Below are positions 13,508 through 39,283 of a stretch of 64,000 nt of DNA, one piece after another. The notes beneath the pieces are model-generated. The model had not been told where the DNA came from. It saw only the letters and a program-made list of their open reading frames with translations, and did not search any database. The DNA comes from a bacterium (lineage in GTDB: Bacteria > Patescibacteriota > Microgenomatia > Curtissbacterales > GWA2-41-24): contig JAKALT010000004.1 in NCBI GenBank assembly GCA_021813125.1, forward strand, positions 7,941 to 71,940, in the 5' to 3' direction. Position 1 is the first letter of the stretch; every line of letters starts with the position of its first letter. Made by a program: the position numbers and the translations under genes.

Positions 13508-14397
13508 TGTTGTGGCGGGTTTTGGTTTGGATTAAGTTGTTGCTCTCCGCGAATAGACTGGGCAGCTTTGGCGGTTGCCGTCTTAAGGTTTTCCAAAGCC
13601 TCCATTTGGGAAGGTGCAGGTGCCCGTTGGTTAATGTTTGGAAGGGAATCTGCGTAACCCGGTTGCGGTATCGGCTGGGAGGGTTCCTGGGTATAGGTTG
13701 GTTGCGGTTGAACCGGCGCTGGAGTTGGTACTTCCACCGCCGGTTCAACCATTGGTGTTGTGTAAGATGCTGAATCCAGAATTACCCTTTGAGTGCCTGT
13801 TGGCGCAGGATTATAGATGTCATAGAAGAGTTCAATTAGATCTTTTGTGGTTAGCTGCTTGGTTGTGAGACCAAGGCGGGCCGTCTGTTTTATTAAATGT
13901 TCCCGTTTTGGGGCAAGGGCAACTTTGGCGTCTTGGACCAGCTGTTCTTTATTGTTTGTTTTTACCGGTTTTTTGATGCCAGTTAAGCCAAGCTCGATTG
14001 GAGAAAAGCTGAGGACAAGATAAAAGCGTTTATCCAAAATGGTTTTTTGCTGAACGGTGGACTGGATAAAATCCATGTATTTTTGAATTTGACGCTTAAG
14101 GTCGGGATTCTGCTGGTTTCTTTCTGCTTCAACTAGATGTTGGTAATAGGCAGTGATGTCGGCTCTTTTGGATCGTATCAGAATTTGGATTGGAAACGTC
14201 AGCGAGTTTAAAAGGGCGCCATAAGCATAGATTGTGGCATCTTGTTCAGCTTCCGAGAGAATGTCGAAATTGACTGCAGTTGTTGCAAGGACCATGGCAA
14301 CCCAGCCTGTTTTTAAGATAACGAAGTCTTCGGTTATGTCTTCGATATCCAGATGTTCCTGGGTCGAAGCCTTAATTTTTTGGGCAGCTTGAGCCAT
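13504..14397 (-). CDS. Hypothetical T4SS-associated protein with a Pro/Gln-rich C-terminus
   Basis: 297 aa, translationally coupled upstream of virB4. It has no clear TM segment and ends in a low-complexity P/Q-rich tail. Confidence 0.4.
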   Translation of the reverse strand: MAQAAQKIKASTQEHLDIEDITEDFVILKTGWVAMVLATTAVNFDILSEAEQDATIYAYGALLNSLTFPIQILIRSKRADITAYYQHLVEAERNQQNPDLKRQIQKYMDFIQSTVQQKTILDKRFYLVLSFSPIELGLTGIKKPVKTNNKEQLVQDAKVALAPKREHLIKQTARLGLTTKQLTTKDLIELFYDIYNPAPTGTQRVILDSASYTTPMVEPAVEVPTPAPVQPQPTYTQEPSQPIPQPGYADSLPNINQRAPAPSQMEALENLKTATAKAAQSIRGEQQLNPNQNPPQQ

Positions 14398-15948
14398 TTA
14401 ATTTATCCTTTCTCCCCTGACTCCAATCGGGGCAAGCACTTGACCTGTTAGGTGAAGAGAAACCGGCTTAAAGGATGCAATGTCGCTTTCGGCTTCGATT
14501 GTGTAAGTGCCGCTAGACAAAGGGGTTGCAGAAAGAAACTGGCCAAGCTTGTTGGTTTTCAGGGCCCTTACCGGTATGCCGCTTTCGTCGCGGACCACCA
14601 GAACTGCTCCTTCGATCGGACTGCCTTTATCGTCGGTTACCAGGCCGGAAAGGACATTGGGTTTGTCGGTTAAGGGAATAATTTGAGCCTGCTGGACGCT
14701 CGGTGCAGCCTGAGTTTGTTGGTCTTTATCGGATATTGAAAACTGCGAAAATTCCCGTTTTTGCTGTTTTGGTTTTTCCTCCGTTTTCGGTGCGAGTTTA
14801 GCTGGATGCTGATCTGAATATTGGGTAGTTTCTTGCTTTGGCAGCTGTTTTGGTTGGACTTGAGGCTCAGTTGTTATTTGCGGCGCTGCTTGGACTTTTT
14901 CTTCCTGAATAGGCAGGACAACGGTTGGTGAGTTGTCTTCGAAATGGTATCTCTTTTTGAGCTCGTCGGAGATGTCAAATTTGCGCTCGCCGCGAATTGG
15001 AAGTTTGGAAAGGTCAAAATTGACAGGAGGTGCAAAGTGAAGTTTTCTGACTCTGGTATTACCCACTCCGTGAACAAGTCGAAATTGACCCTCGGAAATT
15101 TTGATAGGTATAACATTATCGAGTGAATAGTTGGTTTCCGATGCCAGATGAGCACTTGGCCTTGCCAGGTCAATTATTTCCTGAGGTTTGTGGTCCAGGC
15201 GCTTTTCGATGCCGGACAAGGTGAATTGTTTAGCTTGTGGCTGTATTTTTGCCCGAGTGAGGGCAGCGGGAGTCTTTTGGGAGATTATTTGTGGTCTCGG
15301 TTCGGGTTCCAAAACCGGAGCCGTTTGGCCTTGGGGAATTTCCTGAAGCGGACCGGAAACTTGCGGAAGTGACCCCAAAAGATAGCCGGACTCTCCTTGG
15401 CCGATCGCTACATATTTATCCTCCCAGGGACTTATCGGCCAAAGAATTGCAGGAGGTAGGTTACCTTCATACTGGCCGGCTGGGAAGCCAAGCCTGTCTA
15501 GTGCCAGTTGTTCTTTAATATCTAAGGAGGTGACGTTTTCTTTTGGAAGAGAACGTAGGTAGGCAATCATTCTTTCCCTGCCTTTTTCTGTTATTTCCTG
15601 GGGAATTTTAGCCTCTTTTTGGGGAGGTTTGGTGACCACGCTCAAAAAGCCCGGAATCCTTTTTTCTTTGATCCAAATCCTTTGGGTAGGGGCTGAGACC
15701 GCTTTGATAAAGGCAAAGATCCATTTATCAAAAGGCCTTCCACCGACAGGTACAAGAGCAATAAAAGCCCCGACGATGCCAATTGTTGCGGCCAAAGGCA
15801 AACGCAAAAGGGTTGGCAGGCCGGAAAAATAAACGAGTACGGCAATTGAAAGAGGGAATATTAAAGTTATAAACTGCCGTGCAGTGAGGTTGCCGAACAG
15901 TTTAAATTCAAAAGCCGCAATATGTTGCGGGACAGGATGCTGCTCCAT
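14398..15948 (-). CDS. PrgI/VirB3-like membrane protein fused to a long C-terminal extension with a carboxypeptidase-regulatory-like beta domain
   Basis: The N-terminal roughly 100 aa (AAFEFKLFGNLTARQFITLIFPLSIAVLVY...) match the PrgI-family pattern of two TM helices. The C-terminus SGLVTDDKGSPIEGAVLVVRDESGIPVRALKTNKLGQF resembles a CarboxypepD_reg-type fold. Confidence 0.5.
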   Translation of the reverse strand: MEQHPVPQHIAAFEFKLFGNLTARQFITLIFPLSIAVLVYFSGLPTLLRLPLAATIGIVGAFIALVPVGGRPFDKWIFAFIKAVSAPTQRIWIKEKRIPGFLSVVTKPPQKEAKIPQEITEKGRERMIAYLRSLPKENVTSLDIKEQLALDRLGFPAGQYEGNLPPAILWPISPWEDKYVAIGQGESGYLLGSLPQVSGPLQEIPQGQTAPVLEPEPRPQIISQKTPAALTRAKIQPQAKQFTLSGIEKRLDHKPQEIIDLARPSAHLASETNYSLDNVIPIKISEGQFRLVHGVGNTRVRKLHFAPPVNFDLSKLPIRGERKFDISDELKKRYHFEDNSPTVVLPIQEEKVQAAPQITTEPQVQPKQLPKQETTQYSDQHPAKLAPKTEEKPKQQKREFSQFSISDKDQQTQAAPSVQQAQIIPLTDKPNVLSGLVTDDKGSPIEGAVLVVRDESGIPVRALKTNKLGQFLSATPLSSGTYTIEAESDIASFKPVSLHLTGQVLAPIGVRGERIN

Positions 15949-25435: not shown

Positions 25436-28400
25436 TCAGGTTGATTTATTGCTGGAGAAGATTACCAGGCCTGTCCCGCAATTTGGGGCACAAACTGTTT
25501 CTTGGTAAGTTGTTGAAGGTTGGAGGCCGGTGAAGGTTGCTTGAGGCAGTGTTGAGTTGTCGTTTATAGTCTGAGTCTTGCAAAGACTTCCTGCCGCACT
25601 GCAGCTTGAAAAAGAAGCAGGGTAAACAACGGCAACGTATGACCAACCCCAAGACATCGAGGCGCTGCCGTCCGCATTGGCTCTTGTACCGCCCGATTTT
25701 ATAATGGGCCCAGTTCCGTCTGTCACTCTCACCTCAAAGATGAGTGATGAGCCAGGCCAAAAGATAAACTTCGGAGTTGAACAGGAAAGACTAGTACTTC
25801 TGCAGTCGGAAGTTTTTTTGTTTACATCAACGAAACCGGCGTAACCCCATGGTCTTCCCCAGCTGAGGTTGAGGCTTGTATTCGGAGGGGTTGGTGTAGG
25901 GGTAGGCGTTGCCTTTGGGGTAGGTGTTGGTGTGGGCTTCGGGGTTGGAGTGGGTGTGGCTTCAGGAGGCAAAGTTGGAAGCGGTGTCGGTGTAGGTGTC
26001 GGACCGGGTGTCGGGGGTGGCGTGGGTGACGTTGTCGGATTTGGTGTCATGGTTGGTTTTGGGATACAGCTGGTATCGATATTTTGATAATGCTGCAGAA
26101 CAAGAGGTTTTAAGGCCATGTCACGGACGAACATTTTGAAACAGTCGGTTGAGCCGATTAAGGGCTGTTTACCTTCGCCAGTTGTATCGCCGAGAACGTT
26201 TGAAGTTGACACACCTAAGGAGGCGCCGCCTACCTGGCCAGGGAGTTTTTTGGTGAGGCCGGAGATAATCGATTCAGCCATTAATGATGCACATGTTTTA
26301 AGGGCGGGAAGGTTCAGTAAATTATCCTCTACACATTTCTTGATCTGTGGAAAGTTGTCAGATTCCGGCAGGTTAGCCCAGTTGAGTAAGCCGCTGCAAT
26401 CTCCAGCTTTGCATTGATCCAGTAAATCTTGGAGATGTGCAGCAAGAGGGTCTTGCTGGCCTTGATTAGCGCTTTGTAAGACAAGATTGGGTGTAAAAAA
26501 CGCGTAAACACCCGGCCGGCCGGTTTTTTGAATTGAATTTGGCCCATCAATATTCTCTGCAGTGTCCGAGGCAAGGGTGTGATTCCAGATTTCACCGATC
26601 CAGGGAATCCTAAACACCGGCCAGACACTGACTGTTGCCGTACAGGTTTCTATTCCTGCTGTTATTGCACAACTATCCCACTGGCCGTTGCCGGAGGTTG
26701 GCAAATCCATTTGTTTGGAAAAGGTAAATGTAATGTTGCAGACGACGTTGGTGTTTTGGGGATCCAGCTGATTTGGGTCGTTGGCGTTTGGTTGGCTGCA
26801 GGTGCCCGCAGGAAGTTGGCCCGCCGGAACTGCACAATAGGGGGCCGTCCCGGAGCGGCCGTTTCCGAGCACTTTTACGCATGTAGGATCAGAAGCAGCG
26901 TAGGCATTTTTGATCGGGTGGATGTTTTCGATTTGCAGGTAGCTGACGACCTTTTTTAAGGCTTTGGTTAGCGGGTTTTGGGAGGCCAGGAAAACGCATC
27001 TTTTGATGATTTTAGCGAGTACGTTTTGGGTGCCTTGAGTTGAGGCTTGAAGGATCAGGTTGTTTTGGGTAGACTGCGCGATTTTAGGGGCAAGCATCAT
27101 ATTGGTTATGCCGGTTGTGGCAGCAGCGCGGAAAGTGTCGGGCATAATGAAGGTAATTGGCGGTCTGGAGTCAAATGGCACTGGGCATGTTCCTCCATTT
27201 TTAATTTGCGTTATCATGTCGCTTCCAACACCTACTTTAAATTCCAGTTTTCCCTCGTAGTATTCGTTGTAGGCTGTTGGAATTTTTACCCAATAAGGCC
27301 CCCATGTTGACTGGAAATTAGCTGAATCTGGGTTTGGGGCCCCCCATTTTTGGACCATGTCATAGATTGTATGAGGGTTCAGGCCGTTAACATCGGTTAT
27401 GATACTTGTCGATTCGGCCAAAGTAGGCTTGTTGTAAACGTAGTTGACGTATTTGACTCTCAACTGGTTGGTCAAGACTTTTGAGCCCGCTTTTTGATTG
27501 GGGCCAAAAAAGTTGTCACGGTCTTCGGTTGTTACTGAGGTTAAAGGAGCTTGTTGGTGGTTTGGGTCCTGATAACGGCCTTCTGTGTAATTTGAATTAT
27601 TGTCGGCAAAAATTGCCTGCAGTTTGGACATGTCGAGGGTGAAGGTGAATTGTTTATTTGGAGGGTCTGTAACAGCTGTAACGGTTGAGCCGGGAGCGCC
27701 GGTACCTTTGATGGTAAATGTGAAGTTAGGGTCTTGAGGGTTGCCCTTGTCGTCTGTAATGTAATGGTCTGTCAGGTTATCGGTTTGAACTGCGTTACTG
27801 CAAGCTTCGGGTTTAGGTGGTGGGGGAGGCGTGGGGGTAGGATTAGGCGTTGGTGTGGGAGGTGTGCTAGAAAGTGTGATTCTAACCGCATTGGAAATTT
27901 GGGCTGTGAAGTAGGTTAAGGCTGCACAGAAAGTTCCGTTATAACCATTCCATATTTGCGAGTTGCCGCTTACATGGATATTCCCGCCGGTAGCCGGCAG
28001 TCCGGTATTAGCATCAATTATATTTAAATAAACTTCTTGAGATGAGAGTATTGGGAGGCTTAAAGAGCCGTTTTCAAAGGTGAAATTAGCGTTTGTGCCA
28101 CTTATTGATGGTGGATCTTTGAGCTTATACTGACCTGTGTTTATTTGGTTACACTCACCGGGAGGTGGCGGACCACCGATAGTGAAATTTGGTGTTTTTG
28201 CAAGGACAGAAAAGCCGTAAACCAACCCTCCGCAGTATGTACCTGGCGGCGCACTGTTCCAAATTGTTGTGTTTGGCGAGCCGATGGGTAGCGGACCTGA
28301 GTCGAAGGCGGGTGGCACGGTGAAGTCACAGTTGGGTGCTGCCCAAACCCCGAAGTTACCATTGGGAGGTGTATGGGAAAAGGTAACAGTGTTGCCGCTA

Positions 28401-30241
28401 ACGGAGGCACTAATAGACCATGTTGATGGTGTTGGTGATGGTGGAGGGGGCGCGCCAATTGTTACGGTTCCGGAAAGACCTGAGGCATCAATTGAGGTGA
28501 TTGAGATTGTTACACCGTTTGTGGGGTCGGAAAAGCTAGTACCGGGTTTAAAAGCGGCATCTATTAAATCTGTCCAGTCATTTGGGTCAGCTGATGTGGA
28601 ATCTGGTGTTGAGTCTATTAAATAACTGTGGATATCCCCTGGTTGGTTAAAACGAATTAGGGCGCCGTTTTGTCCCGCAGATGGAATTCCTGTATCTAAT
28701 CCAGTAGGTTGCCGCCATTCCACATAGTACCAGGATACAGTTCCCCCCATAGGTTCGGTGATCCTGGGTACTTTGATAACATTAATGCAGCTGGTACTTT
28801 CGAAAGGACACAGACGAAATGGGCTTGAACTGGTGATAGTTTGTGTATTTCCACTATTGAGCCACCCATAAATATCCTTGTGAGGAGCGTCCACATCGAA
28901 AACATCAACTCCCATTACAGAATAAAGACCGTTGTATTCCTGGGTTGTGCATCCTGTTGTGGTATATATTGCCGAGCCACAATCCCAGTCATTTGAATGG
29001 TCAGCACCTAGCTGGTGGCCAATTTCGTGTGTGAGGCCATGATTGCCAAAATTTTGATTACCGAAAGGGGTGACATAAGCACCATTAGTGGAAGATGTGA
29101 AACCTATGGTAACAGATTTTGTACCTGTGGAATCGACGATGGGGTACGTGACGGGAGGCATCCATGCAAACCCAAGTGAGGTATTGCAGTTAACTACGAA
29201 ATGTACATGTCCATATTGGGTAAAATCGACGCTTGCTGTTGAGGCATTGATGAAGTCAGGGATTTGGGTCCATAGTGCTACCGGATCATTATTACAACTG
29301 GTCCCTACATTTAATGGGATATTAAACCAACCGTATACGTCAGGTTGAATGTCTAGCTGGCCATTAGAGGAGGCTAAAAAAAAATTTTTCATAAAATTGA
29401 CATAACCTTCAACGTCGGTTTTTGAGCCATTTGGATATTCAGGAGGCTGGTCTTGCCAACGAACTAAAATAACGGCTACCTTTTGAGGGCCTGTGGAGAT
29501 AGATGTTCCCTGAACATTGCTTGTTTTGGAGTCTTTTACCAATACAGTGTTGTCCCACTTATAACCATCAACAGAAATTCTTGCTCCGTTTTGGTTAGGT
29601 TCATCAACGAACTTTAGAAGGTAAACTTCTTTCGGGCTTTGTTGGAGCATGTTTACTCTTTGAGGTTTCTCGTTGGCCTTTTCTATATATGTTTGAAGCA
29701 GAGTTCCTTCCTTGTTGAACGATTGTTCCAAGTCGTTTGGAGCTAAATCCTGAATAGGCTTGCGTTCGGCGTCGGGGATTGACAAGGCTAAGGCTTCGGA
29801 TATTTTATCTTCCTTGATTAGGGATAAAACTTCTTTTTTACGAGCTGCTGCTGTTTCTTTTATTTTCGATTCTAAAGCTTCTTTTTCCTTCCCTTGTGAT
29901 TTTTCATACTTTTTAGCCAGGGAAACTAATTCGGAGGTATCTTTTTGAGCCTGGGTGACAGTTGATGGAGCTGGCGAAGGTTTATGTTTTAAAAGTTTAA
30001 AGCCGAATATTAAGACAGATATTATGGACACTAAAAGCAGGACAATTAGGCTTATCTTGCGGAGAAATTTGAAATTTGGTGGAGGTTTTTGCGGATTTGG
30101 CGGCTGGTTTTGGAATTTGGTACCGGGATTTTCACCAAGCTGATTTGCAGTCGGTGACTGGAGACCGCCATTTAATGTCCCTTCGAGGCTGAAAGGCGTG
30201 GCCATACAAACAGTGTACATTTGATATATAACGTGTGACAA
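25436..30241 (-). CDS. Giant membrane-anchored metzincin-type zinc metalloprotease (1601 aa) with multiple beta-rich domains and Pro/Thr linkers
   Basis: HEIGHQLGADH (aa 405-415) matches the HExxHxxGxxH metzincin motif. A candidate Met-turn, LYSVMG, lies about 30 aa downstream. An N-terminal TM anchor spans aa 61-83. PTPTPTP linkers are present, and the C-terminal region is Cys-rich. Confidence 0.6.
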   Translation of the reverse strand: MSHVIYQMYTVCMATPFSLEGTLNGGLQSPTANQLGENPGTKFQNQPPNPQKPPPNFKFLRKISLIVLLLVSIISVLIFGFKLLKHKPSPAPSTVTQAQKDTSELVSLAKKYEKSQGKEKEALESKIKETAAARKKEVLSLIKEDKISEALALSIPDAERKPIQDLAPNDLEQSFNKEGTLLQTYIEKANEKPQRVNMLQQSPKEVYLLKFVDEPNQNGARISVDGYKWDNTVLVKDSKTSNVQGTSISTGPQKVAVILVRWQDQPPEYPNGSKTDVEGYVNFMKNFFLASSNGQLDIQPDVYGWFNIPLNVGTSCNNDPVALWTQIPDFINASTASVDFTQYGHVHFVVNCNTSLGFAWMPPVTYPIVDSTGTKSVTIGFTSSTNGAYVTPFGNQNFGNHGLTHEIGHQLGADHSNDWDCGSAIYTTTGCTTQEYNGLYSVMGVDVFDVDAPHKDIYGWLNSGNTQTITSSSPFRLCPFESTSCINVIKVPRITEPMGGTVSWYYVEWRQPTGLDTGIPSAGQNGALIRFNQPGDIHSYLIDSTPDSTSADPNDWTDLIDAAFKPGTSFSDPTNGVTISITSIDASGLSGTVTIGAPPPPSPTPSTWSISASVSGNTVTFSHTPPNGNFGVWAAPNCDFTVPPAFDSGPLPIGSPNTTIWNSAPPGTYCGGLVYGFSVLAKTPNFTIGGPPPPGECNQINTGQYKLKDPPSISGTNANFTFENGSLSLPILSSQEVYLNIIDANTGLPATGGNIHVSGNSQIWNGYNGTFCAALTYFTAQISNAVRITLSSTPPTPTPNPTPTPPPPPKPEACSNAVQTDNLTDHYITDDKGNPQDPNFTFTIKGTGAPGSTVTAVTDPPNKQFTFTLDMSKLQAIFADNNSNYTEGRYQDPNHQQAPLTSVTTEDRDNFFGPNQKAGSKVLTNQLRVKYVNYVYNKPTLAESTSIITDVNGLNPHTIYDMVQKWGAPNPDSANFQSTWGPYWVKIPTAYNEYYEGKLEFKVGVGSDMITQIKNGGTCPVPFDSRPPITFIMPDTFRAAATTGITNMMLAPKIAQSTQNNLILQASTQGTQNVLAKIIKRCVFLASQNPLTKALKKVVSYLQIENIHPIKNAYAASDPTCVKVLGNGRSGTAPYCAVPAGQLPAGTCSQPNANDPNQLDPQNTNVVCNITFTFSKQMDLPTSGNGQWDSCAITAGIETCTATVSVWPVFRIPWIGEIWNHTLASDTAENIDGPNSIQKTGRPGVYAFFTPNLVLQSANQGQQDPLAAHLQDLLDQCKAGDCSGLLNWANLPESDNFPQIKKCVEDNLLNLPALKTCASLMAESIISGLTKKLPGQVGGASLGVSTSNVLGDTTGEGKQPLIGSTDCFKMFVRDMALKPLVLQHYQNIDTSCIPKPTMTPNPTTSPTPPPTPGPTPTPTPLPTLPPEATPTPTPKPTPTPTPKATPTPTPTPPNTSLNLSWGRPWGYAGFVDVNKKTSDCRSTSLSCSTPKFIFWPGSSLIFEVRVTDGTGPIIKSGGTRANADGSASMSWGWSYVAVVYPASFSSCSAAGSLCKTQTINDNSTLPQATFTGLQPSTTYQETVCAPNCGTGLVIFSSNKST

Positions 30242-30268: not shown

Positions 30269-30628
30269 CTAGCTTGTAAACCTTACGTTTGAGAGGTCAA
30301 ACCCCAGAAGATTTTGAAGAAGCAGAATTATAAGCCAGGAAACTACCACCAAAATAATGCCAATTAGGGCATAAGTCATGGTGTTTCTGGCTCCAGCCGT
30401 AGCTTTCGGGTCTCCTCCGGACATCAGAAACTGAAAACCGCCAACCAGCAACATAAAGAAAAAGGCAATCCCAGCAGCCGGGGCCAAAAGGCCAATGATG
30501 TTTTTTATAACGTTTACAATATCCGCCAATTGGGCAGGCGTGTTGGGATCGCCCGGAACTGTACAGCCCGACAATACAAGTGCCAAGGCCGAAAAGGCAA
30601 TGAAATGCCTCAGCTTGTTGAAAACCAT
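30269..30628 (-). CDS. VirB2/TrbC-like (T4SS-type) pilin-like small protein
   Basis: 119 aa. A lipoprotein-like signal peptide (LSGC) is followed by two hydrophobic helices flanking the loop MSGGDPKATAGAR. Confidence 0.5.
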   Translation of the reverse strand: MVFNKLRHFIAFSALALVLSGCTVPGDPNTPAQLADIVNVIKNIIGLLAPAAGIAFFFMLLVGGFQFLMSGGDPKATAGARNTMTYALIGIILVVVSWLIILLLQNLLGFDLSNVRFTS

Positions 30629-31032
30629 TATGATCCAGCGACAGTTGGAATGGTTAATGATCCAGAGATGATTGTGACACCAAAGAATGTTTCAACAAGT
30701 TTGATGATTGCAAATGCCAGCAGAACGATAACCAAACCGATTAGGGCGGCTGTGATCATACCTCGTGCTCCGGCAACAGACTTTTCGTCTCCTCCTGCCG
30801 TGATCCACCTGAGACCACCGATCAAAAGGAAGATGAAGGCCAAAACGAAAGCGATCAAAAGAATGAACCTGATGACGGCTCTGACAATTTGGATGATGTC
30901 CGTGTTACCTTGAAGCTCACTTGGTACGATGTTTTGAGCAAAGACTGCCATTGGCAGAGTCATTGCTGCTGCTTGCAGTGCGGCGAAGCCGATTAATTTT
31001 TTAGCTTTTGACATATTTTCACCTCCTTTCAA
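30628..31032 (-). CDS. VirB2/TrbC-like pilin-like small protein
   Basis: 134 aa. A signal peptide is followed by two helices flanking TAGGDEKSVAGAR. It shares the AFAIIKLVETFFGVTI segment with the next gene. Confidence 0.5.
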   Translation of the reverse strand: MKGGENMSKAKKLIGFAALQAAAMTLPMAVFAQNIVPSELQGNTDIIQIVRAVIRFILLIAFVLAFIFLLIGGLRWITAGGDEKSVAGARGMITAALIGLVIVLLAFAIIKLVETFFGVTIISGSLTIPTVAGS

Positions 31033-31084
31033 AGTAAGTTACTTGCGAATAAAGTCTAGAACAAAAACTCATTTTTGCGCCCTA

Positions 31085-31423
31085 TTATCTTGTCGGTAGC
31101 TGGAAGCCGCCGGAAACAATTGTGACGCCAAAAAAAGTCTCTACTAATTTGATTATAGCAAAGGCACCGAGGACTACAATCATGCCAATCAAGCCCCAAT
31201 AAATTTGTGCCCAGGCGGAGGAAACAGATTTGGAATCGCTCCCTGATGTTATGAAGCGAAAACCTGCCAGAATTATCCAGATAAAAGAGAGTATGAAGCC
31301 GCCAATTAAGAGCATCGATATTGAACCTCGAATTAATCCGGCGACAAAGTTGGAGGGATTGCCGCCTACTGTCGGGACACCGCCCGGAGGATTGATTGTA
31401 CCTAGTTGGGCAAGATTAGTCAT
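31085..31423 (-). CDS. VirB2/TrbC-like pilin-like small protein
   Basis: 112 aa. Two hydrophobic helices flank TSGSDSKSVSSA, and the second helix is paralogous to that of the 30628-31032 gene. Confidence 0.45.
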   Translation of the reverse strand: MTNLAQLGTINPPGGVPTVGGNPSNFVAGLIRGSISMLLIGGFILSFIWIILAGFRFITSGSDSKSVSSAWAQIYWGLIGMIVVLGAFAIIKLVETFFGVTIVSGGFQLPTR

Positions 31424-32469
31424 TAGGTGATTGGTATATTAGACTGCAAAAAGTACTGTAAAATCCTGACTATCACAAAAGCCAAAACTATGACTGCAAT
31501 TCCAATGATAGCATAGGTTAAGGTACCCTTGGCGCTTGCAAGTTTTTTCTCATCACCTGAGGATGTTGCAAATTTAAAGCCTGCCAAAACAATGAAGAAA
31601 AGCGCTAAGGCACCTGCAAGGCTGACTAAGACTAACAGTACATCTGAGACAAGCTGCCCAAATGACCCAAAACGTTTAGCGGGTTGAAAAACGTCCATGA
31701 TATTGAAAGGCGGAGCAGGGTTGTCGGGGTTATTCCAGTTATTACAATTGTCGGGGGCGGTAAATGGGACAGTATTAGATATATCAACCCAGGCTAAACG
31801 TAGCACTGCCGTGTCTGCCCCTTTCTGGTGGGCAGTATAAGTGACAGAGGTGACACCATCGGGGATGATTGGGGAAGTATACCCAGCTCCCAAAACAGCC
31901 AGGGCACTATTGTGACCGGCACCAGGTGTACCGTCCTTTCTTGCAATAGAAAAAACAAAGTCGCAGCCGGCTGAACTTTGCAGAGCCAATGTGAAATTAA
32001 TTGCATCCCCCGGCGGCGGAGTAGGAGGAGGACCGCAGGTTGGTGCCGTGACGCTGGCCGGGGTTGGATAGGTATCGACAAGCCCATTCCAAATCCGCCA
32101 TTCATAGGTTACTCCGGGTGCGAACCCGCCTGACTCGTAGCTGAAAGGTCCTATCCCAATATTTGTTATTCCTGAAAGACCACCCCAGGTGTATGATGTG
32201 GTGGTTCCGGGGATATACTGACCTGGATGAGTGGCGTCCGGCCACGCTGCTCCTGGTTCTCTGACATCAAGATAATAATAACTGCTTATTTCGCTATCGT
32301 TCCATTCAAATTTGATAAACCCTGCATCCCCAAAGCATCCGGCTGTGGCAGTTAGATTGTAAGGAGTTGCAAAAACTGGTTTTGCTCCTTTTGCTAGGAA
32401 AACTGCAGCGAATACTAAGACGAAAGAAAATGAGATTAGGGTTTTTGCGAGTTTGCTATTAAGAAACAC
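31423..32469 (-). CDS. Secreted beta-rich protein with a C-terminal pilin-like module (putative adhesin-pilin fusion)
   Basis: 348 aa. A signal peptide is followed by a P/T/G-rich ectodomain. The C-terminus reads FIVLAGFKFATSSGDEKKLASAKGTLTYAIIGIAVIVLAF. There is a 1-nt overlap with the downstream gene. Confidence 0.5.
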   Translation of the reverse strand: MFLNSKLAKTLISFSFVLVFAAVFLAKGAKPVFATPYNLTATAGCFGDAGFIKFEWNDSEISSYYYLDVREPGAAWPDATHPGQYIPGTTTSYTWGGLSGITNIGIGPFSYESGGFAPGVTYEWRIWNGLVDTYPTPASVTAPTCGPPPTPPPGDAINFTLALQSSAGCDFVFSIARKDGTPGAGHNSALAVLGAGYTSPIIPDGVTSVTYTAHQKGADTAVLRLAWVDISNTVPFTAPDNCNNWNNPDNPAPPFNIMDVFQPAKRFGSFGQLVSDVLLVLVSLAGALALFFIVLAGFKFATSSGDEKKLASAKGTLTYAIIGIAVIVLAFVIVRILQYFLQSNIPIT

Positions 32470-34963
32470 CGGTGCCTCCTAAAAATAGTTTATCGACAAT
32501 TTGCAAAACTGCAAAGGCAAGGATAATAACGGCGAGGCCAATAAGGGCGAAAATGAGTCGATTTCTCGCCGAGGCTGCCGCTTCCGGGTTGCCGGAAGAT
32601 GTTATGAATTGAATTCCTGAGATGACGATTATGATAATCGAGAGGAATCCGGCTATGCCAAATATGTATGGCAGAATTGCAGAAATTATTCCGCCGGGTG
32701 TTGCAAGCGCACAGTTTTTTATCGGCCCCTGGACTACGCCTGCACCTCCCGGGAAAGCAAGCCAGCCGCATTTGTTGTTTTGAGGCAAAGTAAAGTCGAC
32801 AACTCCTGACTCTTCTGACATAAAAACCACAACAACAGCTTGATGATGTCCGTTAGGTAGGGCATTGAAGCGGACAATACCGCCGCCTGCTGGGACCGGT
32901 TGGCTTAAGCCGTCAAGGTCTTTAATTGCGACAATGGCTTCACCGCCTATTCCGGGACAATTATCAGTTGGGCATTTTACATTAAAGATGGCATCGTTTC
33001 CGTTTATGACACTGGCAAGATACATGGTCCATTGGATGGCGTCGGTTTTGCAGGGAACGTCTATATTAACTGGGTTAGAAACTTGGTTTGCAGCATAGAT
33101 TATTTCCGCGGTGTAGCTGGCGGGTGTTGCCGGTGCGTCCCAGACGACGCTGGAGACATTTTCTGGTATCGAGATTTCCGCGCCGGTTTCGTTGATGTGG
33201 ATGACGCTACTTTTTCCGGAATTGGGTGAGATGCCGAAAATCACTTTGTACTCAAAGCAATTGGTAATTGAAAGTGTCCAGGTGTTGCCCGGGGGCGGGT
33301 TGACGGTAAAAAACTGGGTATTGGAAACTGCTACTCCGAATGCCAGCTGAGCGCAATAGTCGCCAACAGGCGGGAAGTTCCAAGTGACTTGAGTATTGCC
33401 CGATGCTATGGCGCCGCTATCAAACGGTCTTGGTAAAACACCCCAGTTACAGACGTCCCCGCTGCGTGGAGCAACAACAAGGGCAATATTGCCATTTGAT
33501 TCTGGGGTAAATGAAAATAGGACGGATAGTTGATTACTGGCAACATTTGGCGGGTCCAGATGCCAAGTTGCGACTGCTTTTACGGTGAGGGTGTTTGTTG
33601 CACCTACCGTAAGGGCACAAAGGTTTTTGGTGACATCGTCCCTCGCCCCAACGAGATAAGTTGTGTCGCTTGGCACATTAGGGGCTGTTAGCGGAATATT
33701 GCCAAGCCCGGTTCTGGTCCCACTACTTGGAGCCGAAAGGGAATCAATCGCAGCAAAGAATGTATGGGTTGAGTCACCACTTATGATTGAAACAGTTATG
33801 CTTCCCCCCTCGTCTACTGTTGTTGGAGAGAAATTGTAACTGCATGGGGTAGGCGGGTTGACGTTGATAACAACAGAATCGCTGGCGCTTCCGCCGGGCC
33901 CATTACAATTTAAAGTGTACGTGGTATCTATGATTAAGCTAGGTGTGGGTTGACCGGGTGATGACGTACCACTCCAACCTCCAGGAGATACGGAGCATGT
34001 TGTGGAGTTTGTTGAGGACCAGGTAAGAGTGGCAGTAGCACCATAGCTAATGGTTATGGGGCCATTGGAACCGTTAGCTTTAATATCGGCAGTTGGTGCT
34101 GGTGCAGTTACTGTTACCGAACACGTGGCATTTTGGGTACCGCTTGTGACAGTGACGGTTTTGGTCCCGGCAGTTGAATAATTCGTTGCAAAGTTCGAGC
34201 CAGACCCAGAAGATGGTGTCCCTCCGGGTGCTGACCAGCTGAATGTTCCGGTGCCTGCCGCGGCTGTGAAATTGGCGTTGACTCCAGTTGTAACTGTTTG
34301 TGTTGGCGGTGAACAGGTAGGTGCCGGAGGCGGGGCGACATTAACTGTGACGGAGGCCGTAGCAGTTCCACTGACATTGGTGCAGGTTAAGGTGAAGGTA
34401 GTTGTGGATATAAGGTTGCCGGTTGGTTGGGTACCGCTTGTGGCAACGGATGTGCCATTTAGAGTGCAGGTATCTGCGTTTGTTGAAGTCCAGGTTAAGT
34501 CTGTTGACGTGTTATATGGAATATTGGTGCTGGCTGCGGTTATGGAGACAGTTGGTACGGGAGGGGCGATGACGGTGATTGTGATACCGGTAGTTGGAGA
34601 ACAGATTTCCGGAAATGGGGTGAGGGGGTTTGATGTTCCGGCTACAACTAAGAATGATCCAGAATATGATCGTGGGTCACCAGCACCAAATAGATCATCA
34701 AGGTTTACTGTGGTGGTGAAGGAATTGCTGGGTGTATTAAAGTTTGTGGGAAAGAGACTGCTGTCATATTTAATTACGTAATCCACGTTTGGTTGGAGGT
34801 TTTGGACTGTTACATTAAAAGACCCATGGGCGACAACTTCCGTTGTTGAGACAATCAACTGACAGCCGGCTTGGGCTTCTATAGGTTTTGGAGAAGCGGC
34901 AAAAGGCAGCAATATGAGAACAAACGTAAACAAAACGGCAGCTAACTTCAGGAACAGTTTCAT
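32459..34963 (-). CDS. Large secreted multi-Ig-like-domain protein with a C-terminal pilin-like module
   Basis: 834 aa. A signal peptide is followed by about 700 aa of T/S-rich repeated beta domains. The C-terminus reads IIVISGIQFITSSGNPEAAASARNRLIFALIGLAVIILAF. Confidence 0.5.
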   Translation of the reverse strand: MKLFLKLAAVLFTFVLILLPFAASPKPIEAQAGCQLIVSTTEVVAHGSFNVTVQNLQPNVDYVIKYDSSLFPTNFNTPSNSFTTTVNLDDLFGAGDPRSYSGSFLVVAGTSNPLTPFPEICSPTTGITITVIAPPVPTVSITAASTNIPYNTSTDLTWTSTNADTCTLNGTSVATSGTQPTGNLISTTTFTLTCTNVSGTATASVTVNVAPPPAPTCSPPTQTVTTGVNANFTAAAGTGTFSWSAPGGTPSSGSGSNFATNYSTAGTKTVTVTSGTQNATCSVTVTAPAPTADIKANGSNGPITISYGATATLTWSSTNSTTCSVSPGGWSGTSSPGQPTPSLIIDTTYTLNCNGPGGSASDSVVINVNPPTPCSYNFSPTTVDEGGSITVSIISGDSTHTFFAAIDSLSAPSSGTRTGLGNIPLTAPNVPSDTTYLVGARDDVTKNLCALTVGATNTLTVKAVATWHLDPPNVASNQLSVLFSFTPESNGNIALVVAPRSGDVCNWGVLPRPFDSGAIASGNTQVTWNFPPVGDYCAQLAFGVAVSNTQFFTVNPPPGNTWTLSITNCFEYKVIFGISPNSGKSSVIHINETGAEISIPENVSSVVWDAPATPASYTAEIIYAANQVSNPVNIDVPCKTDAIQWTMYLASVINGNDAIFNVKCPTDNCPGIGGEAIVAIKDLDGLSQPVPAGGGIVRFNALPNGHHQAVVVVFMSEESGVVDFTLPQNNKCGWLAFPGGAGVVQGPIKNCALATPGGIISAILPYIFGIAGFLSIIIIVISGIQFITSSGNPEAAASARNRLIFALIGLAVIILAFAVLQIVDKLFLGGTGVS

Positions 34964-35016
34964 CTCGGCTTAACTTAAATGTAGCATTTTTCGAAGATTG
35001 ACGCTAAAAGTAGCGA

Positions 35017-35946
35017 TTAAGAATTGTATACAAGCCCCGGTATAGGAACAATGGCAACACCTAAAAATTGCATAATTATCACGGAAAAGGCTATGAAAAG
35101 TGCTCCGGCTATGGCAGCGACGATCATTTCCCGGCCTCCCGACATTTTTTGAGGGTCGCCAGACGAAGTCATAACACGTATTGATCCGATGACCATAAGA
35201 ATTAAAGCGATGCCTCCCGATATACCGAGGGCAATGCGAAGAAGCGTTGTTGCAAAATCACCAATTTTAATAGGTATTGTGCCTATTGCTGTTTCGCACC
35301 CAGCCTTGCATGGGTTGAAACCTGCACTTGAAGTGCTACCAACGCTACCACTACCAATTCCATTTATAGGGTCTGCTATTGCAGCATAATGTTGGCACTG
35401 TGCAAGGTCGGTATAGGTACTGGGATATGAAGATACGCGGCATTGATAAGTATTGTTTGTATCCACATATATTTCATAATATGTGGTATCTGGAGGGTGA
35501 AAGTAGGGATCCTTGGAAGAATCATAAGGAATAGGGTCTGCGGTAGTACTCCCGCAATCGATCTCCTTTCCACTTATGAGTAGTTGCTTGTAATCAAAAG
35601 TATATGATCCACCGCTATATGGGATTTTGCCAGCAATTGAATAAGTTGTGCTTATTGCTGAATTGTAGGATATGTTTGTTATTTTAGTTTTACCTTTGTA
35701 TATTATTCCGAGCGAGTACCAGTCACCAGTATCGTAATAACCGGGGTTAGCTGCACCGGTCACCACAGCATTATTGAAAAAAAGCATGATCTGAGTTCCG
35801 TCTGAAGAAACCATGGAGAATACATAGGCAAGTTGACAAGTATCTGCTTGAGCATTTGGAGGTTTTATTAATACTGTTCCAAGGGTTAATAGAAAAATAA
35901 TGGCAAACGATAAAAAACCAGGAACAAACTTGAGGAGCAGTTTCAT
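35017..35946 (-). CDS. Secreted protein with a C-terminal pilin-like module
   Basis: 309 aa. The C-terminal roughly 95 aa (CKAGCETAIGTIPIKIGDFATTLL...VMTSSGDPQKMSGGR...) are about 90% identical to the C-terminus of the 36068-37432 gene. Confidence 0.5.
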   Translation of the reverse strand: MKLLLKFVPGFLSFAIIFLLTLGTVLIKPPNAQADTCQLAYVFSMVSSDGTQIMLFFNNAVVTGAANPGYYDTGDWYSLGIIYKGKTKITNISYNSAISTTYSIAGKIPYSGGSYTFDYKQLLISGKEIDCGSTTADPIPYDSSKDPYFHPPDTTYYEIYVDTNNTYQCRVSSYPSTYTDLAQCQHYAAIADPINGIGSGSVGSTSSAGFNPCKAGCETAIGTIPIKIGDFATTLLRIALGISGGIALILMVIGSIRVMTSSGDPQKMSGGREMIVAAIAGALFIAFSVIIMQFLGVAIVPIPGLVYNS

Positions 35947-36000
35947 ACGCTTATCTCAAATGTAGCATTTTTGGAGCTTTACCGCTAAGTTGCCAGGATA

Positions 36001-36045
36001 AAGGTCAGGCCTTTGCTAAGGATCGCCCAAGTTAAGCCTGACCTT
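36001..36045. repeat. Palindromic intergenic element, copy 5
   Basis: AAGGTCAGGCCTT...AAGCCTGACCTT, lying inside the pilin-module array between the 309-aa and 454-aa genes. Confidence 0.6.
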
Positions 36046-36067
36046 AGCTTTTGATATGGCTCCGATT

Positions 36068-37432
36068 TTAGCCTGTGAAGTAGCCCAGTCCCGGTATTGG
36101 AACAATGGCAATGCCTATGAATTGCATAATCATAACGGAAAAAGCGATAAAAAGGGCACCGGCTATTGCTGCAACAATCATATCCCGACCACCAGCCATT
36201 TTTTGAGGATCACCAGATGAAGTCATAACACGTATTGATCCGATGACCATAAGGATTAAAACGATACCACCCGAAATGCCCAGAGCAATTTTCAAAAGAG
36301 TACTGGCAAAGTCGCCAAGATTGATAGGAATAGTGCCCAATGCTGTTTGACAGATGCCGCCGTTACACGGGTTCTTGCCCGCGCCGCCGCCAGCAGCAAC
36401 ACCGATGGAAAGACTATTTGTGCATTGAACCTGGCTTGGTGACCCTGGTAAGTCTGTAATATTGACAGCGTAAGTACCGACAAGCGCATCTTTAGGGATT
36501 GTTACCATGGCACCCCCTTGGGTATAGTGTATGGCTGGATCAAGTTCTACTACTCTGAACGTAGCAATATTTTTGTAATCGGGCGTACCATTTACATTTA
36601 CAAGCTCTACGGGATAATCGCCAACCGGGAACTGCTGTCCTATTACAGCAAAATCATCTCCCGCTTTTAGACCAGGTGAAGAAGCGTCGCACTTGGCAAG
36701 GGTTAAACTGACTTGAAGGTCAGGCGTACAGGTAACCGGTGGACTGGTTTCGACAACGACCGTATAAGTTCCCGGGGCAATACTTTGGGGCAGGTTAAAA
36801 TCGGATAACCAAAAATCCCAGGGGAAGCTAATGTAACTTACGCTCCCTATGTGATAGTAGCCCGGATTGATATCAACGGCATACGAAGCGTTTTTGTCGT
36901 CAAGAGCTGAGCCGTGCAGGGTCACACCAAATTTACCCCCCGGTGTGTCTTGCGGTGTTTGCACGGTGCAACCTAGGGGTATGTTGGGTTTGTTTCCGGG
37001 TGAGCCGTCGCCGAATATTACTGTGTATGAGATATCGTTACCACATGTGGTTCCATCCTGGTCTTTGACAGTAATTGTTAATGTGTCGGCATTTAGGTCA
37101 AATCCACCAAACTGTAGATCGGAGAGCGGGATTTTTTCGTAGTATGAATTGCTGCTGTCTAGAATACCAATGTCGGAATGACCGGTAGGGTCAGTGATTC
37201 GAAAATTATAGTTGTTGCCCGGCGTATGGATTGTCATCCAAAATTCAAGGGGAGGGCTTGTAGCGTTTGCTGGATATACGTGCTGATTAATCCAGAAATT
37301 GCAAGTTGCTGCATCTGCCGGTTTTGGGTTTTGCGCAATTAAAACTGCATAAAATAGGATTGGAAGCGTCAAGAAGACTACAAGCCTAAAGAAGGCCTTT
37401 ATTTGCATGCTTAATTTCAGTTTAGCACCCAT
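36068..37432 (-). CDS. Secreted protein with a C-terminal pilin-like module
   Basis: 454 aa with a signal anchor and an ectodomain. The C-terminus reads CNGGICQTALGTIPINLGDFASTLL...VMTSSGDPQKMAGGR.... It is the first gene of the array. Confidence 0.5.
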   Translation of the reverse strand: MGAKLKLSMQIKAFFRLVVFLTLPILFYAVLIAQNPKPADAATCNFWINQHVYPANATSPPLEFWMTIHTPGNNYNFRITDPTGHSDIGILDSSNSYYEKIPLSDLQFGGFDLNADTLTITVKDQDGTTCGNDISYTVIFGDGSPGNKPNIPLGCTVQTPQDTPGGKFGVTLHGSALDDKNASYAVDINPGYYHIGSVSYISFPWDFWLSDFNLPQSIAPGTYTVVVETSPPVTCTPDLQVSLTLAKCDASSPGLKAGDDFAVIGQQFPVGDYPVELVNVNGTPDYKNIATFRVVELDPAIHYTQGGAMVTIPKDALVGTYAVNITDLPGSPSQVQCTNSLSIGVAAGGGAGKNPCNGGICQTALGTIPINLGDFASTLLKIALGISGGIVLILMVIGSIRVMTSSGDPQKMAGGRDMIVAAIAGALFIAFSVMIMQFIGIAIVPIPGLGYFTG

Positions 37433-37582: not shown

Positions 37583-39283
37583 TTGCGAGCAATTTCTGAT
37601 GTATCCCATCACTATGTGATGGGATATAATGTGTGGGCTCCAATGAGGAAAGTTTTTGCCCTGATTTTACTGGTTTTGTTGCTTGGTCTGTTTTTTATTC
37701 ATAATGTCAGGGCCGATGAACTTGAAGATTTGCAAAAGCAGATAAACGACCTTCAACACCAACTGGATCTTTCTAAAAACGCAACAACGCCGCTTGAGTC
37801 TCAGGTGAAGGATCTGGACGGTCAACTTTCGGCAATCGGGGCAAGACTTAATGCGATTTCTGCCGATTTGGTGCAAAGCGAGAAGGATATTTTGGAGCAG
37901 AAAAAAGTTTTGGCAGGAACTGTTAGGAATTATTACATCCAGAGTTTTGTGGATATTCCGCTTTTGACGCTTTTTGCGACAAGAGACGCAACGGATACTC
38001 TAAGAATTATTGCTTTTCAACAACTTTCCAGTAAAAGTGACCGGGAGATAATTTCGACTATTTCCGAGCGGGTTGCCAAGCTTGCCGATGATAAAAAACG
38101 TTTGGCTTCGGCTAAAGCCCAAATAGATAAACAGTCACAATTTTTAAAAGGGGAGATTGCTTCGGCAAAATCGTTCCAGAGCCAGCTTGAAGGTCAGATT
38201 TCGGCTCTAAGTGCCAGGCAACAGGAAATTTTGTCGGAAAAGTCTGGCACATTTCAAACGACGGTTGGGGATGTTCCTCTAGCTGACGATGTTGCGAGCA
38301 GGCCGGATTACAATCCCGGTTTTTCACCCGCATTTGCTGCATTTTCTTTTGGAGCTCCACACTTTAAAGGAATGAGCCAGTACGGTGCGTTGGGGAGGTC
38401 AAAACAGGGGCAAAGTTATGAGCAGATTTTGAAGGCATATTATGGAGGAGGGATTGAAATTAAGGACCAGGATCCAAACACCCAGATCAATGTGGAAGGA
38501 TATGGTACGTATTCTCTCGAGGAGTATGCAAAGCGAATATACGAGATGCCTGGAAGCTGGGGAGATGAAGGAGGAATGGAAGCACTAAAGGCACAAGCTA
38601 TTGCGGCAAGAAGCTACGTATTGGCACGCGGCGGGTCGATTTGTGCAACAGAATCATGTCAAGTATTCAAGCCGGAACCAAAAGGAGGTAATTGGGAACA
38701 GGCGGTCAATGCGACGCGGGGCAAAGTTTTGTATGCAAATGGCCAGCCGTTTTCGACTTGGTACGCTTCAACTTCAGGAGGATATCAGGAATCTTATAGC
38801 TCAAACGGTTATTCAACGCCAGGTTTTTGGGATACTCCAAACGGGCGAAGCGGTTGGACGAGTCAGGCTTATGAAAAAATTGCGGGCAGTCCATGGTTTT
38901 ATAAGGGTTGGTACAGGAGTAGATCAGGTGATAGTTGTGGTAGAAGTCATCCGTGGTTGACCAGCGAGGAGATGGCAGATATTTTGAACGGCTGGAAAGT
39001 GCTCTCTGAAGGGGGAGGCGATGGCTCGAGAGTGACACCATTAGGTTCCTGCTGGGGCGGAAATCCGTATAGTATGGGTGAACTCCGCTCGATTGGTGGG
39101 TTCACAAGTGTGTCAGGTGTAAGCGTTTCATACTCTGATGGCGGAGTCACTGCGAGTGTTGTATTTCAAACTAATAAAGGAAGTGTGACTATTAATGGCA
39201 ATGATTTTTATAAAGTATTTAATTTGCGAGCACCAGGGAGAATATCTTTGAAGTCTGGCCTTTACAACATAGAGAAGAAGTAA
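37583..39283 (+). CDS. SpoIID/LytB-domain protein (peptidoglycan remodelling) with an N-terminal coiled-coil
   Basis: GMSQYGALGRSKQGQSYEQILKAYYGG matches the SpoIID/LytB signature. The signal peptide starts at the internal Met (MRKVFALILLVLLLG), so the real start is probably near 37643. Confidence 0.55.
   Translation: MRAISDVSHHYVMGYNVWAPMRKVFALILLVLLLGLFFIHNVRADELEDLQKQINDLQHQLDLSKNATTPLESQVKDLDGQLSAIGARLNAISADLVQSEKDILEQKKVLAGTVRNYYIQSFVDIPLLTLFATRDATDTLRIIAFQQLSSKSDREIISTISERVAKLADDKKRLASAKAQIDKQSQFLKGEIASAKSFQSQLEGQISALSARQQEILSEKSGTFQTTVGDVPLADDVASRPDYNPGFSPAFAAFSFGAPHFKGMSQYGALGRSKQGQSYEQILKAYYGGGIEIKDQDPNTQINVEGYGTYSLEEYAKRIYEMPGSWGDEGGMEALKAQAIAARSYVLARGGSICATESCQVFKPEPKGGNWEQAVNATRGKVLYANGQPFSTWYASTSGGYQESYSSNGYSTPGFWDTPNGRSGWTSQAYEKIAGSPWFYKGWYRSRSGDSCGRSHPWLTSEEMADILNGWKVLSEGGGDGSRVTPLGSCWGGNPYSMGELRSIGGFTSVSGVSVSYSDGGVTASVVFQTNKGSVTINGNDFYKVFNLRAPGRISLKSGLYNIEKK

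Follow-up and report, generated by a model that had tools for sequence, protein, structure and literature searches.

The 64,000-nt window analysed here, from contig JAKALT010000004.1 (GCA_021813125.1) of an uncultivated, ultra-small bacterium of the Curtissbacteria-type (Curtissbacteria-like) Patescibacteria, contains an array of seven consecutive minus-strand pilin genes (30269-37432). The first two of these, gene B and then gene A, join nearly identical C-terminal modules to unrelated N-terminal ectodomains. Our analysis, which is computational throughout, makes it probable that both genes encode modular VirB2-like pilins of a chromosomal, monoderm-type type IV secretion system (T4SS) and that their heads recombine. 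The parts of the two genes are as follows.

36068..37432, minus: gene B, array position 1; open reading frame (ORF) of 454 amino acids (aa) with signal peptide, all-beta ectodomain, Cys-loop and predicted VirB2-like pilin hairpin
36377..37309, minus: ectodomain of gene B, residues ~42-352; without a Pfam family, all-beta in a low-confidence AlphaFold2 (AF2) model
36068..36376, minus: Cys-loop (NPCNGGICQTALG) and predicted two-helix pilin module of gene B; holds repeat copy 36080-36348
35017..35946, minus: gene A, array position 2; ORF of 309 aa with the layout of gene B and another ectodomain
35320..35841, minus: ectodomain of gene A, residues 36-209; a very rare family
35017..35319, minus: Cys-loop (NPCKAGCETAIG) and predicted pilin module of gene A; holds repeat copy 35026-35294

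A shared pilin-type module and unrelated ectodomains

BLASTP aligns the two proteins at their C-termini alone, where 82 of 98 residues are identical (84%, E 1e-51), and all other high-scoring segment pairs have E>0.4. Within the ~100 shared residues, identity is 86% over 88 residues and 88% over an 80-residue core, so that the near-identity reported in the initial annotation stands and its figure of about 90% was slightly generous (84-88%). The C-terminal strings that it quoted match residues 213-305 of A and 356-449 of B letter for letter. In DNA, the 88 aligned codons of the module are identical at 211 of 264 nt (79.9%), and the 53 differences are distributed 8, 3 and 42 over codon positions 1, 2 and 3, in agreement with the earlier description of about 80% identity with mostly synonymous changes. 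A codon alignment of the 80-codon core, a check that the initial annotation had proposed, gives a synonymous divergence (dS) of 1.07, a nonsynonymous divergence (dN) of 0.077 and a ratio (omega) of 0.07 by the method NG86, bearing out strong purifying selection on the module.

Upstream of the module the two genes part company. A repeat search recovers a 269-nt direct repeat (35026-35294 / 36080-36348, 80%) and nothing beyond it shared between genes A and B; homologous N-terminal DNA, which would have marked the pair as simple diverged tandem duplicates, was thus not found, the module repeat being all that the genes have in common. The ectodomains differ in length (~175 aa in A vs ~310 aa in B), their BLASTP comparison is not significant, and profile-profile alignment with hhalign gives a probability of 0.5% (E 0.11). 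The N-termini are alike only in their general plan, a signal peptide followed by an A-x-A site and a Cys.

By sequence and profile comparison, the C-terminus common to A and B is a predicted VirB2-like hairpin of the T4SS_pilin type, consistent with the conserved pilin body of the initial annotation. Pfam PF18895 (T4SS_pilin) matches six of the seven array genes: four besides A and B score 29-39 bits, and A and B score 25.1 and 25.9 bits, just under the gathering threshold of 26.6. Precomputed PF18895.6 matches are on record for A, B and most module homologues. With hhalign, a profile of the A/B-subfamily module matches the short array pilins at a probability of 98.2% (E 2.7e-14) and the modules of positions 3 and 4 at 98.8% (E 8e-17). 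The NCBIfam family NF045849 (Mbov_0395 family) gives weak matches to pilins 3, 4, 5 and 7 (E 2e-8 to 2e-5; 24-34 bits, cutoff 40) and no match to A or B. The remaining members of the array, all of which end in a T4SS_pilin-type hairpin, are listed here.

32459-34963, minus: array position 3, 834 aa
31423-32469, minus: array position 4, 348 aa
31085-31423, minus: array position 5, 112 aa
30628-31032, minus: array position 6, 134 aa
30269-30628, minus: array position 7, 119 aa

Four of the seven array genes bear N-terminal ectodomains, of 200-740 aa. AF2 models the A/B module as a small beta-hairpin and then two long helices with a four-residue turn between them. In gene A the hairpin (E216-225) and the helices (228-260 and 265-294) have predicted local distance difference test (pLDDT) values of 80-91, with the helices at 86-91; in gene B the helices span 372-404 and 409-442. 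Both proteins have the topology of VirB2, with a signal peptide (hydrophobic helix plus A-x-A site), two hydrophobic helices and a short polar/basic loop, SSGDPQKM(S/A)GGR, joining the helices. The Cys-loop hairpin in front of the helices is of disulfide type, with the consensus NPC-x3-15-C-x-TA-x-G; N211, P212, C213, C217, T219 and A220 are invariant or nearly so in an alignment of 42 sequences.

The Cys-loop also varies in composition. In the L007 lineage (both genes, L007 10001-12529; P0008-P0014, P0059) it holds a D-x-N/D-G-D-G-K-x-D insert that resembles a dockerin/EF-hand Ca-binding loop, and precomputed matches to PF00404 are on record for P0014, P0031 and P0047 and to PF13202 for P0014.

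A HMMER search with the gene A ectodomain against 1.84 billion representatives returned three proteins, namely the gene A protein, P0062 (42%) and P0063 (34%), and all three end in the A/B module family. For the gene B ectodomain, the sole homologue is the position-1 ectodomain of L003/L009, the full-length L003 orthologue being 39% identical to gene B (E 3e-84). With gene A as query, a database search returned 51 proteins, of which P0002 alone covers the whole protein; otherwise, the matches of both genes are confined to the last ~100 residues. P0036 is listed with 70% coverage of gene A, yet its ectodomain falls in another cluster. Across 62 proteins with an A/B module, the N-terminal parts form at least 26 BLAST-unrelated clusters, and the ectodomain type in the slot beside SpoIID varies between Curtissbacteria genomes. 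These many N-terminal types on one module, together with the conflict between the module tree and ectodomain relationships described below, support the modularity of the genes.

No credible Pfam (E<=1) or NCBIfam family was found in any ectodomain, and no adhesin domain can be recognised. Nothing places these proteins at the tip of a pilus, and the tip location and adhesin role suggested in the initial annotation are still hypotheses. Structure-based annotation of the ectodomains was dropped, since a pLDDT of below 50-68 makes a fold search of those parts meaningless. Diversifying selection on the ectodomain is not supported either: gene A and its orthologue show purifying selection there (omega 0.18, and 0.064 in the module of the same pair). 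An apparent cassette difference at position 1 between L003 and L009 (374 vs 318 aa) proved to be a matter of the start-codon call, the stop-to-stop ORFs being identical.

Carriers of the A/B module subfamily are nearly all Candidatus Curtissbacteria metagenome-assembled genomes (MAGs). Most Curtissbacteria have a single gene with this module, in the first array slot; two such genes occur only in the window genome, L003 (identical to L009 and L013), L007 and L011. The seven-gene order is kept in L003, L007, L009 and L011, and syntenic loci have a constant layout of a divergently transcribed SpoIID gene, the array and a giant secreted protein. The exact A/B sequence is also present in MAG GCA_027346405.1 and on a 131.6-kb ENA contig.

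Conversion and exchange within the module

When the two-copy genomes are compared, ectodomains relate by gene position and modules by genome. We call gene B W_1 and gene A W_2, after their positions in the window, and name the positional genes of relatives in the same way (L003_1, L007_2 etc.). L003_2 and L007_2, for example, are related in ectodomain type (38% identity, E 4e-59). In neighbour-joining trees of the module, bootstrap values are 99-100% for the two-copy clade, 100% for the L007 pair, and 51-81% (amino acids, first plus second codon positions) or 21% (all nucleotides) for the L003 pair. W_1 joins W_2 and L011_2 in 42-64% of replicates, and it groups with its positional orthologue L003_1 in 0-5%, despite their orthologous ectodomains. 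Both L007 copies have DTNGDGKVDTC inserted in the Cys-loop, and the loop that joins their helices contains PKNVAAG.

Two uninterrupted tracts of identity point in the same direction as the trees. The 35-nt identical stretch noted in the initial annotation is exact.

35165-35199, no strand assigned: gene A copy of the 35-nt identical run; encodes LMVIGSIRVMTS in helix 1; candidate short gene-conversion tract
36219-36253, no strand assigned: gene B copy, its partner

This tract of the window pair is longer than chance would give (P=0.003-0.005, codon-column shuffles) and is specific to the window genome. Relatives differ at synonymous sites inside it, and we therefore rejected the idea that the run is a functional element at the nucleotide level. 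The L007 pair has an independent perfect tract of 80 nt that extends up to the stop codon (shuffle P<5e-5), and the rest of the L007 module is full of synonymous differences between the copies. From the trees, the genome-specific run and the independent L007 tract we conclude that gene conversion, which the initial annotation had considered possible, acts between the paralogous modules; with an overall dS of about 1, most of it would be old or in short tracts. The duplication could not be dated from dS, as most cross-genome pairs are saturated.

Exchange between lineages was detected in the 5' part of gene A. Its orthologue P0002, 86% identical, is on the 4.3-kb contig L011, and comparison of the two loci delimits the following tract.

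35233..35985, minus: gene A tract recently common with the L011 lineage, from dS contrast, a max-chi-square scan and three-way informative sites; 3' breakpoint at ~35197-35235

Besides the signal peptide, ectodomain and Cys-loop, the tract takes in ~35 nt of upstream element at one end and the initial ~17-27 codons of the module at the other. Between the window and L011, dS is 0.23 in the gene A signal peptide, 0.41 in its ectodomain and 1.34 in its module, and the ~35 nt 5' of the gene A start are conserved as well. Around gene A, the proportion of synonymous differences (pS) between the same loci is 0.63 in the last 25 codons of the position-1 gene, 0.63-0.89 in each 60-codon window of the position-3 gene (the final 12-codon remnant excepted) and 0.71 where the position-4 gene begins, so that the flanking genes are saturated. 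A max-chi-square scan of third positions places a breakpoint at codon 238, with 21% vs 61% differences on its two sides (permutation p<0.0005). Three-way informative sites switch at about the same place: in module codons 0-27 they favour the orthologue over the in-genome paralogue by 18:4, and from codon 27, where the 35-nt run starts, they favour the paralogue by 25:8 (Fisher p=3e-5). The breakpoint thus falls inside the module, beside the 35-nt run.

Judged by the position-3 protein, L011 is at least as distant from the window as L003 and L007 are, because that protein is only 60% identical to the window's in L011 (67% in L003, 72% in L007). L003 and L007 bear a different ectodomain at position 2. 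The extreme C-terminus still pairs gene A with the L011 orthologue (...YNS, ...YNG), and the simplest reading of these comparisons is for that reason a homologous replacement of the 5' ~750 nt within an existing orthologous gene, with a crossover in the module, in place of the insertion of a new cassette. On comparative grounds, recombination between lineages within gene A is therefore shown, for one case and against a short background.

Proposed mechanism and alternative explanations

In the mechanism that we propose, each protein would consist of a Sec signal peptide, a lineage-variable all-beta ectodomain, the Cys-loop hairpin, a first transmembrane (TM) helix, the basic loop (SSGDPQK..GGR) and a second TM helix. 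A two-TM hairpin predicts that both termini lie outside the cell, and so the ectodomain would be on the outer face; judging from VirB2/TraA biology, the ectodomain and C-terminus would be directed outward after Sec export and the basic loop toward the cytoplasm or filament lumen. The three short pilins (112-134 aa) would be the bulk subunits of the filament or channel, and the paralogues with ectodomains would either use the same hairpin to enter it as sparse or terminal subunits or stay anchored in the membrane. Because a large domain on each subunit would not pack on a filament, a sparse, terminal or membrane-resident position is the more likely one for A and B. There they would present alternative binding domains toward the host cell, two genes with one interchangeable body giving two surface specificities in one structural slot. 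The evolutionary side is shown by the comparisons above: purifying selection holds the module, gene conversion keeps the two copies of a genome alike, and recombination inside the module can separate an ectodomain from the module's 3' part, within an array as well as between lineages.

A bolder form of this proposal, which we regard as tentative, is that A and B would be the first VirB2-family pilins of modular build, parts of a T4SS-associated filament or surface structure on which an episymbiotic bacterium displays whole swappable binding domains, with a body that doubles as a recombination handle and a locus that acts as a host-range determinant and evolves through recombination where module and ectodomain meet. 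Crossovers inside the body would then move ectodomains between array slots and lineages, and conversion would keep the copies compatible.

Several observations weigh against reading A and B as modular pilins with recombining heads. Assembly of a VirB2 pilus by the T4SS of Patescibacteria is unproven (PMC12857230), and the Pfam scores of A and B are below threshold. A Foldseek search of the PDB with the whole gene A model gave no significant match, returning generic helical hairpins (best E 0.74); its best pilin match, the Aeropyrum conjugation pilin 8dfu, is non-significant (probability 0.87, TM 0.60, E 2.2). AF2 renders the ectodomains as all-beta from shallow alignments, with pLDDT below 50-68. 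As to recombination, the module trees are built on ~80 codons with synonymous sites near saturation (dS about 1), the grouping of the window and L003 pairs has moderate support, and the background divergence for the lineage exchange comes from one 4.3-kb contig, L011.

Some of these points would suit an explanation that we consider rather unlikely, in which the two-helix module is a mere membrane anchor, A and B are ordinary surface proteins (adhesins or enzymes) that never polymerise, and their place in the array reflects shared anchor ancestry. No pilus has been demonstrated for a Patescibacteria T4SS (PMC12857230), A and B are just below the Pfam cutoff, and a VirB2-type filament could hardly accommodate an N-terminal domain of 20-70 kDa on every subunit, judging from conjugative-pilus structures. 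However, the module is conserved far beyond the needs of an anchor (omega 0.06-0.07), with loop and helix residues near-invariant in 42 sequences; it is homologous to the bare 112-134 aa pilins of the same operon-like array, and the seven-gene order is kept across genomes. A different role for the hairpin, which strikes us as quite improbable, would make the ectodomain a cleaved passenger or pro-domain: a cut near NPC..C.TA.G would free a secreted protein and a mature short pilin, the fusion serving as a co-export device. VirB2/TrbC/TraA pilins do mature from long-leader precursors, and few parts of the protein are as conserved as the junction motif. Yet no protease site or dedicated peptidase was identified, and in the AF2 model the motif is not a linker but a structured beta-hairpin that packs against the helices (pLDDT 80-86); the Ca-binding-like insert of some lineages likewise suggests a structural role.

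The recombination evidence bears on whether A and B could be simple tandem duplicates whose N-termini diverged beyond recognition by fast evolution, with no shuffling or recombination. They do have the same gross layout (signal peptide, A-x-A, Cys, all-beta region, module), and a weak alignment of 25% over 134 residues (E 0.48) can be found between them, but the ectodomains are not fast-evolving: the A type is still 34-42% identical in distant lineages, with omega 0.18, and the B type 39% identical in L003. The difference in ectodomain length (~175 vs ~310 aa), the hhalign probability of 0.5%, and the sharp dS change in gene A and the conflict between module tree and ectodomains, both of which require recombination, render this improbable. 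An error of assembly or binning, in which a chimeric contig joined paralogous module copies, is highly improbable as the source of the A/B arrangement. Repeats of 269 nt can mislead short-read assemblers; however, the arrangement is identical on the 131.6-kb ENA contig and in the NCBI MAG, the two-gene layout recurs in the independent genomes L003, L007, L009 and L011, and copies at 80% identity are too divergent to collapse. Modular pilins with recombining heads thus remain the reading that we favour.

Surroundings of the array and comparison with known systems

The array has at least two tandem pilin genes in the neighbourhood of virB4 and other T4SS genes, as Patescibacteria T4SS pilin arrays do. 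The T4SS core genes, identified with Pfam and NCBIfam, lie ~14 kb from it, within roughly 10 genes, and presumably form the system that the pilin array serves.

14398-15948, minus: PrgI/VirB3-like T4SS gene
13504-14397, minus: TrsD-like T4SS gene
11603-13507, minus: VirB4-like ATPase gene

The TrsD-like gene is directly upstream of the VirB4-like ATPase gene and overlaps it, an arrangement reported as typical of Patescibacteria T4SS (PMC12102498). Housekeeping genes (SpoIID, SmpB, DnaG, sigma-70) are found on the array flanks. Directly downstream of the array, 25436-30241 (minus) encodes a 1601-aa protein with an N-terminal TM segment, Pro/Thr-rich linkers, a metzincin-type HEIGHQLGADH motif and weak Reprolysin matches; its counterparts in relatives are 775-1312 aa long and homologous only in part. 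On the other side, the SpoIID gene (37583-39283, plus) adjoins the array, and in a comparison set of L003, L010, L015 and L024 its protein is 82-83% identical to the L010/L015-type Curtissbacteria and 59% to L003. In all other flanking genes and pilins 5-7 the window genome is closest to L003 (SmpB 97%, pilins 5-7 88-94%). On these identities SpoIID itself looks laterally replaced, and the SpoIID-pilin1-pilin2 junction may for that reason be a recombination hot spot.

Array genes 3 and 4 share 11 nt, and in the pairs 4/5 and 6/7 the stop codon of one gene and the start codon of the next have a single base in common, which suggests that the downstream array genes are translationally coupled. 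Genes 1, 2 and 3 are separated by spacers of 53-121 nt, each with an upstream element of its own. Pilin 5 (31085-31423, minus) differs from its neighbours in having neither a signal peptide nor a hydrophobic leader at its N-terminus. Its conservation is 78-88% in L003 and L007, which are close relatives, and 54-64% in Curtissbacteria further removed, and it is missed by Pfam, with a weak match to NF045849 (Mycoplasma integrative and conjugative element (ICE) pilin-like protein; E 7e-6).

One short sequence recurs in front of the large array genes.

35958-35972, minus: AAAAATGCTACATTT, with an extended -10-like sequence (TGCTACATT), ~12 nt 5' of the gene A start; an identical copy at 34977-34991 lies 5' of position 3

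All relatives (L003, L007, L009, L011) have it ~12-25 nt before their position-3 pilin gene; upstream of position 2 it occurs in the window and L011 only. From this placement we infer that AAAAATGCTACATTT may act as a promoter; scans for promoter and terminator consensus sequences gave counts not above the shuffled expectation. Gene A and the position-3 gene also have their first ~12 codons in common. A diverged copy of AAAAATGCTACATTT precedes Met9 of gene B, which suggests that this gene starts at 37408; Met9 (ATG at 37408) is invariant in the alignment and may be the true start.

A small 23S_rRNA_IVP (four-helix-bundle) gene occupies varying places inside or beside the array in relatives: L011 109-480 (between pilin genes 1 and 2), L010 11497-11865, and after the array in L005 and L007. 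The 15-mer GACTAAAGACTAATG that precedes the IVP ATG in L011 also stands before the annotated start of pilin 2 in L007 (11210-11224), where it looks like a remnant. A tblastn search of the window with the L011 IVP gene found no homologue. Since 23S_rRNA_IVP/Avd-like genes in related arrays raise the question of a diversity-generating retroelement, we considered one and judged it unlikely. The gene lists of the related loci that hold such genes include no reverse transcriptase call, and the repeats of the window are module copies and short upstream elements only, which also argues against a retroelement; in the window, ~16 ORFs outside the array and T4SS regions were not scanned for a reverse transcriptase.

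Much of bacterial diversity falls within the Patescibacteria, whose cells live attached to those of a host. In the only species among them that is open to genetics, both the T4SS and its pilin array are essential. Because the pilin bodies described here carry uncouplable domains with traces of conversion and gene flow at the junction, the array points to a place where partner specificity is encoded and diversified, and reshuffling of modules and ectodomains may alter what a cell can attach to.

This kind of locus is already known: VirB2-like pilin arrays of 2-11 genes have been published for Patescibacteria, especially Microgenomatia (Quinonero-Coronel et al. 2025, PMC12102498), and the pilin array of Southlakia epibionticum is essential (Wang et al. 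2023, PMC10633639; review PMC12857230). Like the published arrays, that of the window consists of tandem PF18895/VirB2-like paralogues near TrsD/VirB4/PrgI and is chromosomal, without an obvious relaxase. The published array pilins are small and structurally conserved but divergent in sequence, with a mean identity of 25% and a maximum of 54% (PMC12102498), whereas the window array has ectodomains on four of seven genes, a module pair 84-88% identical, conversion tracts and an inter-lineage ectodomain exchange. Descriptions of Patescibacteria arrays (PMC12102498, PMC10633639, PMC12857230) do not mention large ectodomains, near-identical modules or recombination signatures. What appears to be new is the set of at least 26 ectodomain types on one module subfamily, conversion of the module and exchange of the gene A 5' part between lineages.

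Tandem-amplified pilin genes (VirB2/VirB5) with variable exposed parts are also known from the Trw system of Bartonella and the T4SS of Anaplasma (PMC3556328; PMC12857230). In those systems, as in the window, amplification is proposed to diversify host-cell binding or antigenicity, but there the variation is in short hypervariable stretches of small pilins in diderm pathogens, and here it is in whole folded domains of a monoderm-type system. The pilin-like NF045849 proteins of Mycoplasma ICEs are short and without ectodomains, and A and B do not match them; the weak matches of other array pilins to this family would fit the proposed monoderm (MPF-FATA-related) ancestry of the system.

By analogy, the closest functional parallel to A and B would be the modular type IV pilins PilB and PilC of Streptococcus sanguinis. 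These follow a like concept, a conserved polymerisation module plus a variable functional or adhesive module, and they are encoded beside plain pilins and enter as minor subunits (PMC8179133, PMC9934059). Type IV pilins belong to an unrelated filament superfamily, with an N-terminal alpha-1 helix, prepilin peptidase processing and the extra module at the C-terminus, whereas in A and B the body is a C-terminal VirB2-type hairpin behind a Sec signal peptide and the N-terminal part forms the extra module. If our reading of A and B is true, the 'modular pilin' principle, so far drawn from type IV pili, would be extended to the VirB2 family.

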